From Chrysochromulina tobinii (lineage: Eukaryota): a stretch of 51,049 nt of DNA. The position numbers and the translations under genes were made by a program. Below, piece after piece: positions 1,425-10,926 of this stretch. The stretch covers positions 1 through 51,049 of the forward strand of contig JWZX01003175.1 in assembly GCA_001275005.1 (NCBI GenBank). The letters are read 5' to 3'. How positions within the stretch are numbered: the first letter of the stretch is position 1; each line of letters opens with the position of its first letter. Under the pieces are notes generated by a model. The model made no database searches. It was not told the origin of the DNA and saw nothing but the letters and a program-made list of their open reading frames with translations.

Positions 1425-4400
1425 TCAGGCGCCCTCGAGCGCCTCGATCGCTGTCTTCACTGCGGACACAACCTTCGACGCCTCCGCCTCGTCCCGTGGG
1501 CCATCGCGGCGCCACCGATCGTCGTCGAGGTGGCGCGCTGCATTCGCCCAAATGCGGAGCGAGTGCAGCCGATCTTTCAGGTCGGTCCGCATGCCACACT
1601 CGCGACGCCAATAGTTGATGCGCTCCTCAAAGCCCTCGGGCGCCAACGCCGCCCTTCCGGCATAGATGGCGTCGAGTCGAGACATCACGCTGCTGAACGC
1701 GAGCAGCATGTTGTCCTTGATGCCCTTGTGCGCATCGGAGCCCTTGCGCATCTCACGCACCTGCAGCGAGAGCGGCGTGGGCACGTAGCATGCCGCCGAG
1801 CTCGCGGGCTGCTCCGAGCTTGAAAGCACCGAGCCGTCGAGCGCGCCGCGGCCGGTGCCAGTGCTCCCATCGTCATCAGCCAGGCTCGTCAGCGTTGCCA
1901 GCGCGGTGGCTACCGTGAGCCTCTTCCGCACACTGCCGTGGCACAAACCCGACGCAGCAGACCGGACGACATCCTTGATCGCCACCGCCACGTGCGGCGG
2001 CCAGCCAGCCTCGGCATCGGCGAGCTTCACGGCATCGATGTCGGGGAAATCGAGCTCGAATGACTCCTCGCAATTGTCAATCATGTTGAGAGGCGATCGG
2101 CCAGTGAATGCTACAAGCAGTGTGATGCCCAGCGCCCAGCCATCGGTCGCTGACGAATACTCGCGTCCCTGGACGACCCCCGGGTCGAGATACCCGCGGG
2201 TCAGGTAGAGCGCATTCGACGCGCTCTTCATCTTCGATGCCTCGGGGTCGGCATCCATCTTGGCGAAGCCCGTGTCTGCGAGGTAGGCGTTGAGCTCGTC
2301 GTCGAGCAGAATGTTCTCCGGCTTGAAGTCGCGATGGACGACGGCGCCCTTGCCGCCAGGCACCGGCGTGTGCAGATAGAGCAGCGCGTCGGTCGCCTGC
2401 TGCAGGATGCGCAGGCGCTGGTGCCAAATCAGAGGGCTCAGCGACGCACCGAGGCCGAGGCGGCGCAGGTGCTCGGGGTCGGCCTCTTTTGGCCACAGCC
2501 GATCGGCGAAGCTGCCGCCGCGCATCAGCGGGAAGACGAGGCACGGCGCCTCGTGCTCAAGATAGTAGCCGAGCAGCGGCAGCAGGTGTGGGTGGCTGCA
2601 CTGCTGCAGCACATTCACCTCGCGCTGCAGATCGGCGAGATCGTGCACGCCCGACTTGGCGCGCTTGACGGCGACGGGCTTGTGGCGCAGCCACAGCGGC
2701 AGGCCCGCGGGCGGCAGCGACGGCAGCGCATCCGCGGTGAAGACGCGGCCGTAGCCGCCGCTGCCGATGAGCCTCTGCTCTCCAAAGCCGTCCGTCGCCG
2801 CCGTAAGCTCGGCGAGGGTGAGGGCGACGGCCGCAGGCGGCGCCGAGGGAGCCTCCGGGGCCACCGATGCTGGGTCCTCTTCTGCGGATGCTGAGCCTGC
2901 GGCAGGAGGCGACTGTGTGACCTCCAGCAGTGACAGCTTCGACAGGCTGGCTTGCATCATCTCCGACGCGTGCTTGCGACGCAGCTTCTGGCTCTCCTGC
3001 TTGCGCTTCTTGTGCAAGCGCTCGCGCATCGCCCTCGCCTCCGCCAACACACCCTCGCTCGCGCGCGCGTGGTGCTCCTCGATCGCACCAATCAGGCCCT
3101 CGTACTGCGAAGCCGCCATGGCCACACGCAGCGCCTCGTCAGCGGTGGCAGAAGGAGCGGGACCCACGACGCCCTCGTCGCCAGCTGGCACCGCCACCTC
3201 GGCGCTGCCACTCGCGGCCGCTGACGCACTCGTTAATGGCGCTCTCGCCTTGCTCGCCCCTGTCGGCTTGGCTTTGGCTTTCTTGCTCGCTTTCTTCTTC
3301 GGCGCCTGCTGCTTGTGCGCCCCCTCCGCCTCCTCCTCAGCCAGCAGAGCCGCAGCGGCAAGCTCAGCTGCCCGCTCGGCTGCCGCACGCTCCGCAATCG
3401 ACACCGGAGTGGCCGCAGCGATGGTCGCAGGTGGGTGCGTGCGTGCGAAGCGCCTGTAGCGCAGGAACGTTGCGATGGCGGTGTGGCCTTGGGCCTCTGC
3501 AACATCGAGGGCTGTGCCATTAGGCGATCGAAAGTCAGTGCGTGCGCCAGCATGCACGAGCAGCTTGACGATGTCGATCGAGCCCGCGAGACAAGCAGCG
3601 ATCAAAGGCGTGACGCCGTCGCTGGCTGCCTGGTCGACGGCGGCGTGGGCGGCGAGCAGCAGCTGCACGCAGTCGCCGTGGCCTTTGATGCAGGCGGCGT
3701 ACAGAGGCGTGGCGCCGTCGCTGGCTGCCTGGTCGACGACGGCGTGGGCGGCGAGCAGCTGCTGCACGCAGTCGCCGTGGCCTTTGATGCAGGCGGCGCT
3801 CAGAGGCGAGTTGCCGTTGCTGGCTGCCTTGTCGACGGCGGCGTGGGCGGCGAGCAGCAGATGCAAGCAGCTTCCGTGGCCTTTGATGCAGGCGGCGTAC
3901 AGAGGCGTGTCGCCGTCGCGGTCTGCCTGGTCGACGGCGGCGTGGGCGGCGAGCAGCAGCTGTACGCAGTCGCCGTCGCCTCTGTCGCAGGCGACGATCA
4001 GAGGCGTGGCGCCGTTGCGGTCTGCCTGGTCGACGATGGCGTGGGCGGCGAGCAGCAGCTGCACGCAGTCGCCGTGGCCTCTGTCGCAGGCGACGAGCAA
4101 AGGCGTGGCGCCGTCGCTGGCTGCCTGGTCGACGGCGGCGTGGGCGGCGAGCAGCAGCTGCACGCAGTCGCCGTGGCCTCCGTCGCAGGCAACGTACAGA
4201 GGCGTGGCGCCGTTGCGAGCTGCCTGGTCGACGATAGCGTGGGCGGCGAGCAGCAGCTGCACGCAGTCGCCGTGGCCTCTGTCACAGGCGGCGTACAGAG
4301 GCGTGGCGCCGTTGCGGTCTGCGTGGTCGACGATGGCGTGGGCGGCGAGCAGCAGCTGCACGCAGTCGCCGTGACCTCTGTCACAGGCGGCGTACAGAGG

Positions 4401-4904
4401 CGTGGCGCCGTTGCTGGCTGCCTGGTCGACGACGGCATGGGCGGCGAGCAGCAGCTGTACGCAGTCGCCGTCGCCTCTGTCGCAGGCGACGATCAGAGGC
4501 GTGATGCCGTTGCTGGCTGCCTGGTCGACGGCGGCGTGGGCGGCGAGCAGCAGCTGCACGCAGTCGCCGTGGCCTGTGATGCAGGCAACGTACAAAGGCG
4601 TGGCGCCGTCGCTGGCTGCCTGGTCGACGATGGCGTGGGCGGAGAGCAGCAGCTGCACGCAGTCGCCGTGGCCTTTGATGCAGGCGGCGTGCAAAGGCGT
4701 GGCGCCGTCGCTGTCTGCCTGGTCGACGGCGGCGTGGGCGGCGAGCAGCAGCCTCGTGCATTTAGGGTGACCAGTCTCACATGCAATACGCAGGCAAAGG
4801 TGGAGGTGGGCCGCTTCTTTCACGCTGTCGACGAGGCCCACAGCCTTGGCCTCGTCGCCGCGCCGGAGCGCGTCGACGATCGCGTCCAGGGTCACGATGC
4901 TCAT
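1425..4904 (-). CDS. Ankyrin-repeat + IRAK/Pelle(RLK)-like protein kinase + putative DUF4145/HEPN-like C-terminal domain protein (~1159 aa)
   Basis: ATG at 4904 (MSIVTLD); ~13 ankyrin repeats (TPL..AC..GH..CVQLLL); kinase motifs LTLAELTAATDGF..RLIGSGGYGRVF, VAVK, HRDFKPENILLD, DTG (for DFG), TRGYLDP; tail FEERINYW...LKDRLHSLRIWANAARH. Confidence 0.88.
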   Translation of the reverse strand: MSIVTLDAIVDALRRGDEAKAVGLVDSVKEAAHLHLCLRIACETGHPKCTRLLLAAHAAVDQADSDGATPLHAACIKGHGDCVQLLLSAHAIVDQAASDGATPLYVACITGHGDCVQLLLAAHAAVDQAASNGITPLIVACDRGDGDCVQLLLAAHAVVDQAASNGATPLYAACDRGHGDCVQLLLAAHAIVDHADRNGATPLYAACDRGHGDCVQLLLAAHAIVDQAARNGATPLYVACDGGHGDCVQLLLAAHAAVDQAASDGATPLLVACDRGHGDCVQLLLAAHAIVDQADRNGATPLIVACDRGDGDCVQLLLAAHAAVDQADRDGDTPLYAACIKGHGSCLHLLLAAHAAVDKAASNGNSPLSAACIKGHGDCVQQLLAAHAVVDQAASDGATPLYAACIKGHGDCVQLLLAAHAAVDQAASDGVTPLIAACLAGSIDIVKLLVHAGARTDFRSPNGTALDVAEAQGHTAIATFLRYRRFARTHPPATIAAATPVSIAERAAAERAAELAAAALLAEEEAEGAHKQQAPKKKASKKAKAKPTGASKARAPLTSASAAASGSAEVAVPAGDEGVVGPAPSATADEALRVAMAASQYEGLIGAIEEHHARASEGVLAEARAMRERLHKKRKQESQKLRRKHASEMMQASLSKLSLLEVTQSPPAAGSASAEEDPASVAPEAPSAPPAAVALTLAELTAATDGFGEQRLIGSGGYGRVFTADALPSLPPAGLPLWLRHKPVAVKRAKSGVHDLADLQREVNVLQQCSHPHLLPLLGYYLEHEAPCLVFPLMRGGSFADRLWPKEADPEHLRRLGLGASLSPLIWHQRLRILQQATDALLYLHTPVPGGKGAVVHRDFKPENILLDDELNAYLADTGFAKMDADPEASKMKSASNALYLTRGYLDPGVVQGREYSSATDGWALGITLLVAFTGRSPLNMIDNCEESFELDFPDIDAVKLADAEAGWPPHVAVAIKDVVRSAASGLCHGSVRKRLTVATALATLTSLADDDGSTGTGRGALDGSVLSSSEQPASSAACYVPTPLSLQVREMRKGSDAHKGIKDNMLLAFSSVMSRLDAIYAGRAALAPEGFEERINYWRRECGMRTDLKDRLHSLRIWANAARHLDDDRWRRDGPRDEAEASKVVSAVKTAIEALEGA
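3614..4750 (-). repeat. 99-bp coding tandem array (11 near-identical ankyrin repeats)
   Basis: Unit xTPLxxACxxGHGDCVQLLLAAHAxVDQAxxxG recurs every 33 codons with near-identical DNA. Confidence 0.95.
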
Positions 4905-5227: not shown

Positions 5228-8200
5228 TCACACCCCAAAGTCCGACGCATTGACGAGCGTCTGAGCTTCGCGCGGAGCCTCTCCGTCCGTACGGAGCCTC
5301 TCTGTGCGCACGATCCACGCGGGAGCGGCGCGTGCGGCCGGGGAGTCGAACAGCGAGGACACCGACACAATGAGCCCTCGCTTGTCGTCGTCATCCTCCT
5401 CCTCCGCTGCCTGCGCCGGCGCCGGCTCCTTCACCTCCTCCTCCTCCTTCCCGTACGCCACACGTCCGTTGCCGCCGCCGGCCTGCTGATTGCCGCTGAT
5501 TGCTGTTGATTGCTGCTTGGCTCGCAGCTTGGTCCGTTGGCGGCGCGCCTTGGCTTCCTCGAGCAGATCGAGCATCGCCCCACTCCCTTCGCCATTGGTG
5601 ACGATCGGCATCGGCTCGAGGCCGTAGCGTTCGTTGTGAGCCTGCTGCACTGCGCGCCGGCGGTCGGTCTCGTCAATGGCGCGCTTCATCGAGCCGGTCA
5701 CGCGGTCGGCAAAGAGCAGCGCCGTGCCACGTACGTGGCGCGCTGCACGCCCGATGGTCTGGATCAACGCTGTACTTGAGCGTAGGAAGCCCTCCTTGTC
5801 CGCGTCGAGCACCGCCACCAAGCTCACCTGATGAGGCGGCCCAGCTCTCAGTGCGATCTCAGAGGCGATCAGCGTCACTCAGCGTCACTCAGCCGCATTC
5901 CAAGGGTAATCAGCGTGGTAATCAGCGCCCATCAGCGCCCATTAGAGGCCATCAGAGGTCGTCAGAGGCCATCAGAGGCCATCAGCGCACCTCCGGCAAG
6001 TCAAGCCCCTCCCGTAGCAAGTTGACGCCCACGAGCACGCTCAGCTCGCCATTCCGCAGCGAGCGCAGCAGACGCACACGCTCGAGCGGTTTCGTGCCGG
6101 AGTGCATGTGCGCCGCCGCTAGCCCATGCTCGCGCAGTGTCGAGGCAAGCCGCTCCGCACTCTCGCGGGTGAGCACTGTGGCGAGCGTACGTTCGCCTAA
6201 TTTGGCACGCAGGGACGCCTCTGCGATGAGCTCGTCGAGCTGTGCCGCGCGTGGGCGGATCTGCAGAGGCGAGCAGAACTCATCAGAGGTCATCAGAGGC
6301 CATCAGAGGCCATCAGAGGCCATCATGAGGTCATCATAGGCCATCAGAGGCCATCAGAGGCCATCAGAGGCCATCAGAGGCTCATATGCGAGCGCACCTC
6401 CACCTGTGGGTCCACAATGTGCGTTGGTCGCAGCACAAGCTCTGGTAGCGACCCCATCGCCTCCTCACCCCCCCTCCTCCCCCTCCTCCCCCCCCGCCTC
6501 GCTCGCGCCGTACCGAGCGCCCCTTGCATGCGCGAGCTCGAACGCTCCTGGCGTGGCCGACACAAAGACCGCCGACGGTACGCGAGCCCAAAACTCATCG
6601 TGCGTGAGGGGGCGGTTATCGAGCGCCGAGGGCAGCCGGAAGCCATGCTCGACGAGGCAGAGCTTTCGGCGCCGATCGGCCGGGTACATGGCGCGTAGCT
6701 GCAGGGGCGCGCGACTCATCAGCAATTCGGAGATCGGGTTGGGGATGGGGGGGTGGGATGGGGGGGTGGGATGGGGGGTTGGGATGGGAGTTTGGGGTTG
6801 GGGTTGAGGTTGGGGTTGGGGTTGGGGTTGAGGTTGGGGTTGGGTCAGGTATTGGGGGGGATTGTCCATCAGCGTCACTCGAGCCGCACCTGTGGCAGCG
6901 CCACGTGTGACTCGTCCACAAGCAACAGATACTCCGGGGGGAAGTAGTCCAGCAAGGTCAGGGGGGCGGCACCGGCCGGTCGACCAGCGAGATGACGCGA
7001 GTAATTCTCGAGGCCCTGGGCCAAGCAGAGGCAACCAGAGGCTAATTAGACGCAATCTAGTTGGCCATCAGCGCCCCATCAGAGGCAATCAGAGGCAATC
7101 ATAAGTCACTCGGAGTGAGCGCCCCATCAAAAGTCACGGGCATCCCACCTTGCAGTATCCCTTGTGAACGAAATCCTCAAGGTCGGCACACACCCTCCCC
7201 TCAAGACGAGTCGCCTCGGCCAGCCGGCCATCCGCCCGGAGCGAGGCAAGACGAGCATCCAGCTCCGCCTTGACGTCGTGCAGCACACGCGCGCGCTCGC
7301 TCTCGGGCAGCACGTGGTGCGAGGCGGGGAAGAGGACGAGCTCGTCGGCGGCGCTTGAGACGGCGCTTGGGACGGCGCCGGCGCCGTCCGCCGCCGCAGT
7401 CGCTTCCGCCACGGCAAGCACCGCTGCGATTTCGTCTTCCTCGTCGATCAGAGCGCTTGTGGGGGCTTCGGAGATTGGATCTCGCATGATGGCCATTACC
7501 TGGACGGCGCCGCCCCCCGCCACCTCCGCCATCGGCGCTACCTGTGGAGACGTGTCCGCCTGCTGTGAATGGTCCGCTGTCCGTGAATGGTCCGCTGCCC
7601 GTGAATGGTCCGCTGTCCGTGAATGGTCCGCTGGCTGTGAATGGTCCGCTTGCTGGGGGAACTGCAATGCGAGCCGCACACGCACCGCCACCTCGGAGGC
7701 GACCGGATGCACACGCAGCTCATAGTCCGTGCTACCGCCACCTCCCACCGCCGCCAGGCTATACTCGCCGCGCTCGGGCTTAGCACGCGTGTCGGCCACA
7801 GGTTCATACTGCAAGCGCTGCAGCGCCGCGAGTAAGTGCGTGAGGGACGGGAGCGTGTGGCCCACACGCAGCGGAAGGGCTGCCTCCTGGTACTGGTCAG
7901 GGACTCCCAGCCCGTAGATGCAAGAGACTGAGGCGACGACCACCTGTGGGGCGATACGGGGCGTGCTCAGAGAGGCCATCAGAGAGGTCATCAGAGAGGT
8001 CGTCAGAGAGGTCATCAGATGAGAGGTCATCAGAGGAGCGGTCATCAGAGAAGGATCACGCAGAGCACTCACCACGTCAGTGCGCGAGAGCAGCGCCGCG
8101 GTGGCGGCATGACGAAGCCGGTCGATGTCTTCATTCACCGAGGCCGTCTTCTGCAAGTACACGTCAGCGGTGGGCTGATAGGACTCTGGCCTGTAGTAGT

Positions 8201-9047
8201 CATAATAGGACACGAAGTACTCGACGGCGTTGTGGGGAAAGAAGCCGCGCAGCTCCGCCCAGAGCTGAGCCGCGAGCACCTGCATGCAATGAGAGAGGCC
8301 ATCAGTGGCCGTCAGAGGCCATCCTCAGGTACGGGGCGCCGTGATGAGCACCTTGTTGGGCGCAAGGACGAGGGTCGGCCTGCCGGTGGTCGCAATGAGC
8401 TGTGCCATCGCAAAGGTCTTCCCCGTGCCCGTAGCCCCTTTGAGGACAAGACGCCGTGGACCCACCTTGGGCGCCGCGAGGGACGTAGCAAGGCGCTCGA
8501 CCACTCCCCGCTGCTCAGCAGTCGGTGGCCAGATCGAGCGGAGATCAAACGACCGATGGGCGCGAAGGTCGTCTCGCCCAACGAAGCTCTCTACCGCCTC
8601 TCGCTTCGCCTCTCGCGCCGCCTCGACGACACCCGCGTCGACCTCTTCGAAGGCCGCGAGCGTCTCCGCAGATAGGGACGGCACCGACGACTTGAGCGAC
8701 GCTGTCGGCGACGGCGTGAGCAAAGGGGCTGGCGTGGGCGGCAGCAACGGCGACAGCAACGGCGCGTCGGTGAGGCCACCCATGATGTCGTCGAGACTCG
8801 AGGGCGCCGTCGTGGGCGCCGGCTCGCGCGGCCGCCTCGTCAGTTGAATCTCATGCAGGAAGCGCAGCGCCGTGCTGAGCGTCGCCCGCAGCGCTGCCTC
8901 GTCGGCGGCCTCCTCGGTGTCCAGCTGGTGCCCGCGGATCCCGAGCCGGTGCGCCATCAACCGGCGCTGCCGCTTGGCGCTCGCCGCAATGGCACCCGCG
9001 GTCGTCGAGGCCGTCGTCCAGCGTGGGTCTGTCGGCAGCCGCAGGAC
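5228..9047 (-). CDS. uvrB: UvrB-like excinuclease helicase portion (exons 9047-8352, 8279-8073, 7943-7149, 7015-6890, 6698-6398, 6260-5991, 5827-5228); probably fused to upstream UvrC portion; one +1 frameshift near 6468-6474
   Basis: GATGTGKT Walker [57 protein letters not shown] Walker [60 protein letters not shown]; motifs rejoin exactly across phase-0 GT-AG introns. Confidence 0.93.
5828..5990 (-). repeat. Intron containing 10-bp GATGGCCTCT-type tandem repeat
   Basis: GT..AG boundaries restore DLPE|VSLV; ccatcagagg units on + strand near 5930-5985. Confidence 0.85.
6261..6397 (-). repeat. Intron composed largely of (GATGGCCTCT)n
   Basis: About ten ccatcagagg-like units at 6281-6381; boundaries restore DPQVE|IRP. 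Confidence 0.9.
6740..6860 (+). repeat. Intronic G-rich tract with (TTGGGG)n-like repeat
   Basis: ttggggttggggttgaggttggggttgggg... at 6792-6844 inside intron 6699-6889. Confidence 0.85.
7565..7650 (-). repeat. 18-bp coding repeat x5 (ADHSxx) inserted in UvrB
   Basis: gtgaatggtccgct core repeated with 18-bp period. Confidence 0.9.
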
Positions 9048-9130
9048 CTGTGTGACCAGCAGCGGGGGGGGGGTGGTGAGTATGGAGGAGGAGGGGGAGG
9101 GGGGCGTGGGTCTGTCCGCAGCCGCAGCAC

Positions 9131-10666
9131 CGGCGGCAGAGGGCGTGAGAGAGGAATGCGACCGGTAGAGGGCGTCGTGCCGAGCGCGCCCTGGCTCGCC
9201 TTGGCGCGTTGCAGGCCGGCCACGATGGAGGTTGCAAGGCGCCTCCCGATGCCCGGTACGCGCCGAAGCGCCTCCACATCCGCCTCACAAAGGGCGGCAT
9301 ACGTCCCGAAATGGTCAAACAGCGCCGCACGCCGCGTCGCTCCGATGCCACTCGTCCCGCCGAGGGCCGTGAGCGCCGACTCGAGCGCAGCCGCCTCTCG
9401 GAGCGCCCGGTGGCCTTCGAGCGCCGTGGCGTGCGCCTCGTCCCGCGCGCGGCGCAGCAGCAGCAGTGGCTTCGATTCGGCGCCACCGGCCGGTGAGCGC
9501 CACGGCATGCCGCTACCAATGCCGCTACCAACGGCGCTACCAACGGCGCTACCAACGGCGGACGTTGCGTCCGCACTCGCCTCGTGGTCGATTGCATGCT
9601 TCACACTCGCCTCGTGGTCGATTGCATGCTTCACACTCGCCTCGTGGTCGGCGTTCTCGGGGGTGAGCCACAGCAAGCTTGCCGACTCGACGCCATCACC
9701 GCCACCGCCCTGATTTCTGGCGGCCGCGCCAATCGTGTGGAATCCATACACGGTCTCGTTCCCCTTTGCCAGAGCGATTAAGGGCACGTGGCGAGCCTCA
9801 GTGGTCGCCAGCGCCGAGCGTGCGGCGTGGAGCTGCCCTTTGCCGCCGTCGATGAGGATGAGATGCGGCAGCGGACGGGACGTTGGCGAGCGTGACCATG
9901 CCGTGGATGCCGCCCCATCATCATCCTCAAGCTCGCCGCCCCCCGTACCCCCCACCTTCCCACACCCGACCTGCGGTGCTGGCGCGAAACGGCGCCGAAG
10001 GCCTTCGACAAGTGCCGCGCAGTCGTCGGCCGCGGGTGCCCTCTGGATCGGCCAGCGCTGGTGGCGAGCAGGCGCGGGCTCGCCGTCGACGAGCACGGCG
10101 CTCGAGACCACAGTGTACTCGCCGCCAAAGTGCGAAACGTCGAACGCCTCGAGCAGCCGCGGCGGGCCGTCGAGCCCGAGCCAAGCTTGCACCGCCTCGA
10201 GCGCCTCGACACGGCGACGCGCGGCGAGAGCACCGGCGAGCATGGCGCGCACGGCCGCACCGCTGAGGCCGAGGCGCACTGGAGCGTCCACTGCGCCGGC
10301 ACGCTCGTTGAGTGCGACGGGCAGCACCGCTCTCGTGGCCTCCGCGCTGCGGAGCCGCCGCAGACATTTGGCCGCGAGCCTCGCCGAGTCTGCTGAAAAT
10401 GGGCCGTGAACAGTGCCGTCCAGAGCGCCACCGGATGACCGGCGCGTGCGCACAATTCCATCCTCATCTACGGTCAAGTAGAGCTCCTCCGGCAGATCCG
10501 TCAATCTCGGGTTGGCAGCCTCGAGCTCGGCTTGTAAGATGAGAAGCTCAGCACTCTGCGCGTGCTGCGCATGGTGAATCTGGCGCACCGCGGACGTGGC
10601 GCGAGGAACCGAAAAACGTAGGCGCATCGCGAGGCCCGTGCTCGCAATGCAGAGCACAGCGAGCAT
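9131..10666 (-). CDS. uvrC: UvrC-like portion: RNase H-like 5'-incision endonuclease + helix-hairpin-helix domain, with N-terminal targeting-like presequence; exon 1 of a probable UvrC-UvrB fusion
   Basis: ATG 10666 MLAVLCIASTGLAMRLRFS; EAFDVSH, LPHLILIDGGKGQL, IALAKG, RARDEAH, GIGATRRAALFDHFG, LRRVPGIGRRLA; no GIY-YIG motif visible. Confidence 0.88.
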
Positions 10667-10926
10667 GGTGATGGCGGGCCGCCGTCCGCGAAGATGCGCC
10701 TTCACGGGCACAAAGATTCCTGGAAGGAACTCTCGACGACGCTTGGAGACCTAGGTCAACGGCACACTTGGAGGAGAGGGGTCTCCTTGTGGAACGTTGT
10801 GAGTTTTGGGCGGGTGTCGGCGACTGTTTCGTCCTTTCACGCGGGCAGCATGTTCTCCGCTGCACTCCGTCCGCTCTTTGCTCAGGGGGCTGTGTCCGAT
10901 CGAGCACACGCGTGGCGCTCCCGCAC

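Follow-up and report, generated by a model that had tools for sequence, protein, structure and literature searches.

Does a haptophyte alga carry its own counterpart of vertebrate RNase L, and was it assembled independently? The question is raised by a gene on the minus strand of contig JWZX01003175.1 of Chrysochromulina tobinii (GenBank assembly GCA_001275005.1), positions 1 to 51,049 of which, 51,049 nucleotides (nt) in full, are called the window here. The gene joins ankyrin repeats, a kinase and a helical tail in one chain. It belongs to a multi-copy haptophyte family, and we propose that it encodes a cytosolic one-chain defence receptor-effector, made of ankyrins, a kinase of the receptor-like kinase (RLK)/Pelle type and a predicted HEPN RNase, and we give this reading a probability of roughly 0.55. 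Its parts are as follows, in window coordinates.

1425 to 4904, minus strand: complete open reading frame (ORF) with ankyrin array, linker, kinase and HEPN-like tail, defined by the ORF and Pfam; the coding sequence is identical in locus L001.
3459 to 4793, minus strand: ankyrin array of 13 repeats, residues ~38-482, with 11 near-identical internal units of 99 nt, defined by Pfam, per-position counts and substitution rates (pN/pS).
2970 to 3365, minus strand: family joint and helical linker, consisting of an Ala/Glu helix, a Lys-rich patch and a conserved helical block, present behind the differing N-termini of relatives.
1899 to 2823, minus strand: RLK/Pelle/IRAK-like kinase, defined by Pfam, sequence and fold matches, and catalytic residues.
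1779 to 1868, minus strand: predicted disordered spacer of about 30 amino acids (aa) between kinase and tail, with model confidence (pLDDT) below 50 at model residues 325-354.
1428 to 1787, minus strand: HEPN-like all-helical domain related to DUF4145, residues 1040-1159, defined by the model, the fold ranking and Pfam matches in relatives.
1530 to 1556, minus strand: predicted active-site helix with Arg1117, Ala1120 (Arg in most relatives), Asn1121, Arg1124 and His1125, defined by motif alignment.

The frame runs uninterrupted from the ATG at 4904 to the stop at 1425, and its translation gives a protein of 1159 aa (P0001). A reading made earlier from the DNA letters (the sequence-only reading) had described one intronless ORF, which holds in the sense of an open frame. 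The ATG at 4904 is supported as the start because the paralogues begin at the equivalent place. An alternative upstream start, GTG 5318, was ruled out, as the paralogue similarity ends at the ATG region. In a Pfam search of the whole protein, 13 PF00023 stretches (E 9.6e-68) and a Pkinase match at residues 710-1002, about nt 2777-1899 (E 3.4e-28), were found, in agreement with the ~13 ankyrin repeats and the kinase already read from the letters. No transmembrane helix is apparent in the protein, whose most hydrophobic segment sits within an ankyrin repeat. PADLOC matches were confined to the kinase and the ankyrins, plus scattered hits in single members of the family.

The tail is a conserved domain, with 32 relatives at E≤0.01 among 581 candidates. 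A tail profile built from 13 sequences retrieved 150 representatives (50% identity) at E≤0.001, including 116 at E≤1e-10, and the named relatives are all haptophytes (Chrysochromulina tobinii, Emiliania huxleyi, and Calcidiscus leptoporus). The kinase accompanies it closely: a tail profile of 35 sequences found 45 longer proteins, each of them with a kinase, and a kinase match lies before the tail in 32 of the 37 representatives having at least 100 upstream residues. In the reverse search, the tail was present in 9 of 13 newly found family kinases, the other 4 breaking off within or at the end of the kinase. Pattern scans, which reach close relatives only, gave no relative in viral contigs (0 of 29 pattern matches) or in prokaryotic genomes (0 of 21). 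The conserved domain begins at residue 1040, about nt 1787, and thus earlier than the ~1720-1425 first assigned to the tail, although the tail sequence itself had been quoted exactly. Conserved Trp residues are a further mark of the tail family. In the model, about 30 low-confidence residues part the kinase from the tail, and this spacer varies among relatives.

The AlphaFold model of the tail is all-helical (pLDDT 85), with a long central helix at model residues 69-86. In a structure alignment against 48,161 chains, the top matches were 1wwp (Z 9.6, root-mean-square deviation (rmsd) 2.9, 100 residues aligned) and 5yep (Z 8.8, rmsd 3.2, 106 aligned), and 2hsb, an entry titled HEPN, scored Z 8.5 (rmsd 2.7, 95 aligned). 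The first 11 matches are HEPN or HEPN-clan structures, among them 2hsb, 8xdj, 7ae2, and 9oik by their titles, and 1wwp, 5yep, 9fcv, and 6yx5, which we take to be such. Entries 1ylm, 1jog, and 3l0i are HEPN domains according to Table 1 of PMC3710099. A second fold ranking is led by MntA-HepT entries (6m6w: Z 9.5, rmsd 2.5, 102 aligned). The best Pfam match of the tail family is DUF4145 (PF13643), which scores E≤0.1 in 21 of 71 members and exceeds the Pfam cut-off in member P0071 (E 9.6e-6, 26 bits versus 23.1); HsdR matches weakly in 3 of the 71. Ribonuc_2-5A, presumably the Pfam family of the KEN domain, is not among the Pfam families listed for these 71 members, where DUF4145 scores instead. 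Searched by sequence, the tail had no match among solved structures. Leads from the ESM Atlas, to be taken as leads only, have scores of 0.80-0.90 and include DUF4145, Csm6-HEPN, and RNase LS clusters.

The aligner itself warns that Z values below about 13 may reflect a common helical arrangement. The tail could accordingly be an unrelated helical bundle with a chance likeness to HEPN, since its best Z falls within that flagged range and designed helical bundles reach Z 7.0-7.7 against the same model. We regard this as quite improbable, because the structure ranking, the DUF4145 match above cut-off in one member, and the position of an RNxxxH motif close to where the long helix ends agree independently. 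On these grounds the tail very probably has a HEPN fold, as the sequence-only reading had proposed in calling it HEPN-like, by comparison with the pattern of DUF4145-type HEPN domains.

Whether the tail could cut RNA depends on its active site. In section 6 of PMC3710099, the HEPN motif is given as Rx4-6H, the Arg being followed by a polar residue; another basic residue may stand in for the Arg in some families, and non-catalytic HEPN domains exist. Passages of 10.1101/760058 describe that Las1 needs the motif Arg and His, and that the characterised HEPN nucleases act as dimers. When 149 representatives of the tail were aligned, 116 covered the motif. In these, the Arg stands only at the canonical place (RNxxxH) in 85, only at the residue before the His in 29, at both places in 2, and at neither in none. 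The canonical Arg is thus kept in 87, the Asn in 112, and the His in 109. The 1159-aa protein is of the shifted type, with Ala1120 at the canonical Arg place, Asn1121, Arg1124, and His1125. The His codon singled out earlier (1530-1532) is that of His1125 (1532-1530 on the coding strand). The motif R..xN...H proposed with it holds good for its Asn and His, which are the conserved pair; the Arg meant there is Arg1117, and the canonical position 1120 is Ala. From their four-residue spacing near the end of the long helix, both Arg positions would lie on one helix face.

The history of this Arg argues for a functional constraint. In a tree of 120 distinct tails, made with both Arg positions masked and after removal of one row that had no motif match, the Arg type changes 12 times, and at least 6 changes are forced by well-supported branches. 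A single change is allowed by 0 of 200 bootstrap trees, in a bootstrap that is not fully settled. A metagenome scan provided 69 loci, up to five under one assembly prefix, and 63 of them have a readable motif for codon comparison. The canonical Arg is encoded by CGC in 10 distant loci and by AGG in 17, and is absent in 36. The 17 AGG loci are nested among Ala-type paralogues, and their second Arg is Ser. Because of this nesting, as against CGC in the distant loci, the Arg appears to have moved away and later to have been regained through new mutation, one Arg always being kept. Since the Arg is never missing from both places and has been switched repeatedly, the pattern suggests, strongly if indirectly, that an Arg near the His is required and that the site works. 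In the Ala-type copy, Arg1124 may substitute for the canonical Arg. We consider RNase activity in the family probable and in this Ala-type copy somewhat less so, still with the balance on the side of activity.

An alternative is that the HEPN-fold tail binds RNA or a nucleotide, or only dimerises, and that the protein signals through its kinase, as IRAK and plant cytoplasmic RLKs do. The absence of the canonical Arg from this copy, the conserved catalytic residues of the kinase, and the non-catalytic HEPN domains mentioned in PMC3710099 would fit such a role. On the other side, the His, the Asn, and one Arg are retained in relatives down to about 35% identity, none of the 116 lacks both Arg positions, and replacement of the Arg by another basic residue may have precedent in the HEPN families noted above. 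Moreover, the Ala-type copies form a clade that is old and has diversified, and purifying selection acts on its tail. We therefore rate the alternative as rather unlikely; in a narrower form of it, the RNxxxH paralogues would cut RNA and the Ala-type copies would not.

In both sequence and fold, the kinase domain most resembles the RLK/Pelle/IRAK group. Among solved structures (best 60 of 999 matches), SYMRK comes first (E 2.5e-25), with PBL2, BIK1, FERONIA, and then IRAK4, and the matches to this group span E 2.5e-25 to 1e-15. For the predicted kinase-plus-tail model, SYMRK, BAK1, FERONIA, BRI1, IRAK1, and IRAK4 rank first, with TM scores of 0.73-0.83 over the target. No IRE1 or RNase L entry is among the matches listed for the kinase and tail models, and grass RLKs are among the nearest proteins outside the family. 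The residues expected of a kinase are present (Gly loop at 714, Lys747, Glu762, Asp859, Asn864, and Asp877). DTG replaces DFG, the Asp877 codon lying at 2274-2276 on the minus strand. Across family rows with a tail, near-duplicates included, the Lys is kept in 67 of 70, the helix-C Glu in 73 of 73, HRD in 85 of 87, and DTG in 88 of 88. Judged by these residues, the kinase is likely active, not certainly so, because the Phe of DFG is Thr.

The sequence-only reading had placed the kinase with IRAK/Pelle/RLK rather than with IRE1/RNase L and had proposed a convergent, RNase L-like assembly. The first point is supported, and the second is well founded, given that the kinase has its nearest matches in plant RLKs and IRAK. 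A divergent true orthologue of IRE1 or RNase L would have the domain order of RNase L, as this protein does, and Table 1 of PMC3710099 lists KEN as a HEPN family fused to kinases, some with ankyrins. We find orthology barely conceivable: the kinase best matches RLKs and IRAK in both sequence (best 60 of 999) and fold, and the tail matches DUF4145. In IRE1 and RNase L, KEN packs directly on the kinase, whereas the algal tail sits beyond a disordered spacer. The protein would function in the manner of RNase L or IRE1, but we do not file it as a member of their family: its kinase is of another group, DUF4145 is the family that its tail matches, and the spacer separates the two domains.

At the sensor end, the 11 internal ankyrin repeats are near-identical in DNA and vary mainly at positions 2-4, 6, 10, 11, 14, 15, and 30. 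As binding positions we used six, which we take from designed ankyrin (DARPin) libraries. Within this gene, nonsynonymous and synonymous differences per site (pN and pS) are 0.265 and 0 at the binding positions and 0.089 and 0.108 elsewhere. For 79 distinct repeats from 12 loci, the full-length ankyrin copies picked from the 69, pN and pS are 0.356 and 0.142 at the binding positions versus 0.130 and 0.122 elsewhere. These pairwise comparisons lack independence, and the 12 loci include several alleles. Mean entropy over the 79 repeats is 2.05 bits at the binding positions versus 0.71 elsewhere (permutation p 0.0008). In the same 12 loci, pN/pS is 0.29 for the kinase and 0.27 for the tail. A diversifying ankyrin binding face next to a conserved kinase and tail is a pattern like that of immune receptors. 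The number of repeat anchors per locus ranges from 4 to 14, subject to assembly error. Loci sharing a 3' flank (L011/L012/L008, L025/L028, and L006/L021) differ in anchor number (4 versus 12, 6 versus 8), through either allelic length variation or assembly collapse.

The ankyrins are only one of several exchangeable N-terminal modules. In relatives, Sel1 repeats, a cold-shock domain, beta-propeller repeats, or unannotated regions stand before the common joint, linker, kinase, and tail, and the joint/linker marks the point behind which the module is exchanged. In a kinase tree of 32 rows, single rows of which may be chimeric gene calls and whose outgroup is two plant RLKs only, the ankyrin label needs 4 changes and the Sel1 label 2, forced by well-supported branches. 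The exchange of modules, the shifted Arg, and DTG for DFG go beyond what had been noticed in the letters. Two single members may be recorded here. P0012 has a cold-shock (nucleic-acid-binding) domain instead of ankyrins and is nested among ankyrin members, as a real swap or a chimeric call. In P0225, a Sel1 member, the kinase is 75% identical to that of the 1159-aa protein and the tail is far more divergent (profile E 2.8e-13) with RNxxxH kept; its effector domain has possibly been replaced.

A regulated RNase might also serve endogenous stress responses or RNA turnover, IRE1-like in purpose, rather than defence. IRE1 and Las1 are HEPN-type RNases with housekeeping roles, and no virus link was observed in this analysis. 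From a housekeeping enzyme, many dispersed copies, arrays of 4-14 repeat anchors, swapped N-termini, diversified binding faces, and frame-broken copies (L034, L047, L051, and L068) would be unexpected, and we hold this alternative to be distinctly unlikely.

Under the defence reading, the ankyrin groove would bind a foreign or stress-altered protein. Binding would gather two or more copies through linker and kinase, allowing trans-autophosphorylation, and two HEPN domains would then be paired into a composite active site, in which Arg1124 would take the place of the canonical Arg in this copy. The cut RNA could lead to translation shut-down or death of the infected cell. As far as the sequences allow a judgement, the protein is probably an infection-triggered defence protein. 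The sequence-only reading had likewise suggested a possible antiviral or cell-death effector activated by dimerisation, a role for which the signs from evolution are indirect.

Several observations weigh against this reading. The last 121 residues of the 1159-aa protein have no Pfam match, the fold scores of the tail are modest for a helical bundle, and Foldseek gave no match at E≤0.001 against PDB and BFVD. Ala1120 occupies the Arg position whose replacement kills Las1, as reported in parts of 10.1101/760058, and an Ex3[KR] motif was not demonstrated in the tail. Where close paralogues differ in Arg type, gene conversion instead of new mutation may account for some of the switches. The DTG motif is an uncommon replacement of DFG, and kinase function might suffer from it. 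Five of the 37 representatives with enough upstream sequence have no upstream kinase match; from their sequences, we read them as mostly partial tails behind unrelated or frameshifted-looking stretches. For the sensor, a conservative minimum-change count is only 1.26 at the binding positions versus 0.59 elsewhere, the repeat comparisons lack independence as stated, and short-read assembly may distort repeat arrays.

The surroundings of the copies bear on how the family spread. Close paralogues are 87-90% identical in DNA yet lie in different surroundings. Compared at the gene edges (L001 versus L006, L007, L012, L017, L020, L025, and L029), they cease to be alike at most about 25 nt from the stop and about 40 nt from the start, and no poly-A or shared terminal repeat was seen there. 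Retrocopying and coding-limited gene conversion would both fit this pattern. A transposon-like unit with common ends was rejected, with no shared flank beyond about 40 nt. In the window, the gene has a convergent neighbour at the contig start.

1 to 552, plus strand: 3' end of the convergent neighbour, with the common joint/linker and then a U-box (E 1.3e-16).

The full ORF of this neighbour is present at L001 6203-8518 (minus strand) and consists of a Sel1 array, which lies outside the window, the joint, and the U-box; over 618 aa it is 58% identical to P0032, a member with Sel1, kinase, and HEPN. Because the U-box stands where the kinase and HEPN domains would be, both ends of the architecture are exchangeable, which suggests a wider mix-and-match system of sensors and effectors. 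We put forward a broader proposal, tentatively and at less than even odds: haptophytes would own a polymorphic innate-immune repertoire in which swappable, fast-diversifying sensors (ankyrin, Sel1, and others) are attached through one joint to effectors, either an IRAK/RLK-type kinase with a HEPN RNase of the bacterial-defence type or a U-box ligase. With the kinase-HEPN version, RNase L would have been invented a second time, independently, to kill or silence cells infected by viruses, its catalytic Arg having moved back and forth along the helix. As a side observation, the gene upstream on the same strand (window 5228-10750, minus) is split by introns built of 10-nt tandem repeats, as judged by eye. 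From its motifs, we assume that it encodes a fused UvrC-like and UvrB-like protein.

Haptophytes count among the major primary producers. The viruses known to infect them are giant viruses, according to the abstract of PMC11953307. The family offers a concrete, cloneable candidate for haptophyte immunity, and the idea is directly testable because a putative catalytic residue and a putative binding surface are named. If the proposal is true, eukaryotes came to couple a sensor, a kinase, and an RNase on no fewer than two occasions, each time with another kinase and another HEPN family. The Arg, having shifted in nature, also gives a way to probe which residues are needed for HEPN catalysis. This is a real haptophyte family and apparently an undescribed one: full-text literature searches, among them searches for haptophyte immune genes, returned no description of it, while subscription papers and the full supplementary lists of PMC3710099 may still bear on novelty. 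Emiliania is not mentioned in the main text of PMC3710099, haptophyte terms do not occur in the portion of its supplement text covered, and the passages of PMC3268121 contain nothing on haptophytes.

Compared with known systems, the protein shares with vertebrate RNase L an ankyrin array, a kinase fold, and a HEPN-superfamily tail in the same order, with no apparent transmembrane helix. The parts differ. The algal kinase is RLK/Pelle-like with its catalytic residues kept, whereas RNase L has a pseudokinase; the algal tail is DUF4145-related and sits on a flexible spacer, whereas that of RNase L is the KEN RNase. The algal ankyrin repeats are almost the same as one another, vary in number, and can be replaced by Sel1 or other modules, and they belong to a multi-copy family. 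RNase L senses 2',5'-oligoadenylate (2-5A), and no such ligand is indicated for the algal protein. It is likely that these algae rebuilt the RNase L layout from different parts. With IRE1, the protein shares a kinase followed by a HEPN-superfamily domain, and the oligomerisation-driven activation of IRE1 is the template for the proposed algal mechanism. Unlike IRE1, it has no luminal sensor or membrane anchor, and kinase group and HEPN family differ. The RLK/Pelle/IRAK kinases (SYMRK, PBL2, BIK1, FERONIA, and IRAK1/4) are the best sequence and fold matches of the algal kinase, which differs from them in DTG for DFG (88 of 88 rows), in the HEPN-like tail, and in having no ectodomain or death domain.

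The best Pfam match of the tail family, DUF4145 (PF13643), is a HEPN family of prokaryotic defence systems, from which the algal family differs by its added conserved Trp residues and shifting Arg. In Table 1 of PMC3710099, DUF4145 is recorded in bacteria, archaea, and double-stranded DNA viruses, fused to restriction endonuclease (REase), helicase, Sel1, TIR, and other domains, and a fusion with a eukaryotic kinase is absent from the rows of that table on DUF4145. The animal HEPN domains of the DZIP3/hRUL138 type resemble the algal case as an expanded eukaryotic HEPN fused to TPR, ankyrin, and other sensors (PMC3710099 Table 1). They differ in that no kinase is among the fusions listed there, and no Pfam or sequence link to the algal family was found. 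In section 9 of the same source, lineage-specific HEPN expansions are tied to defence in other eukaryotes.

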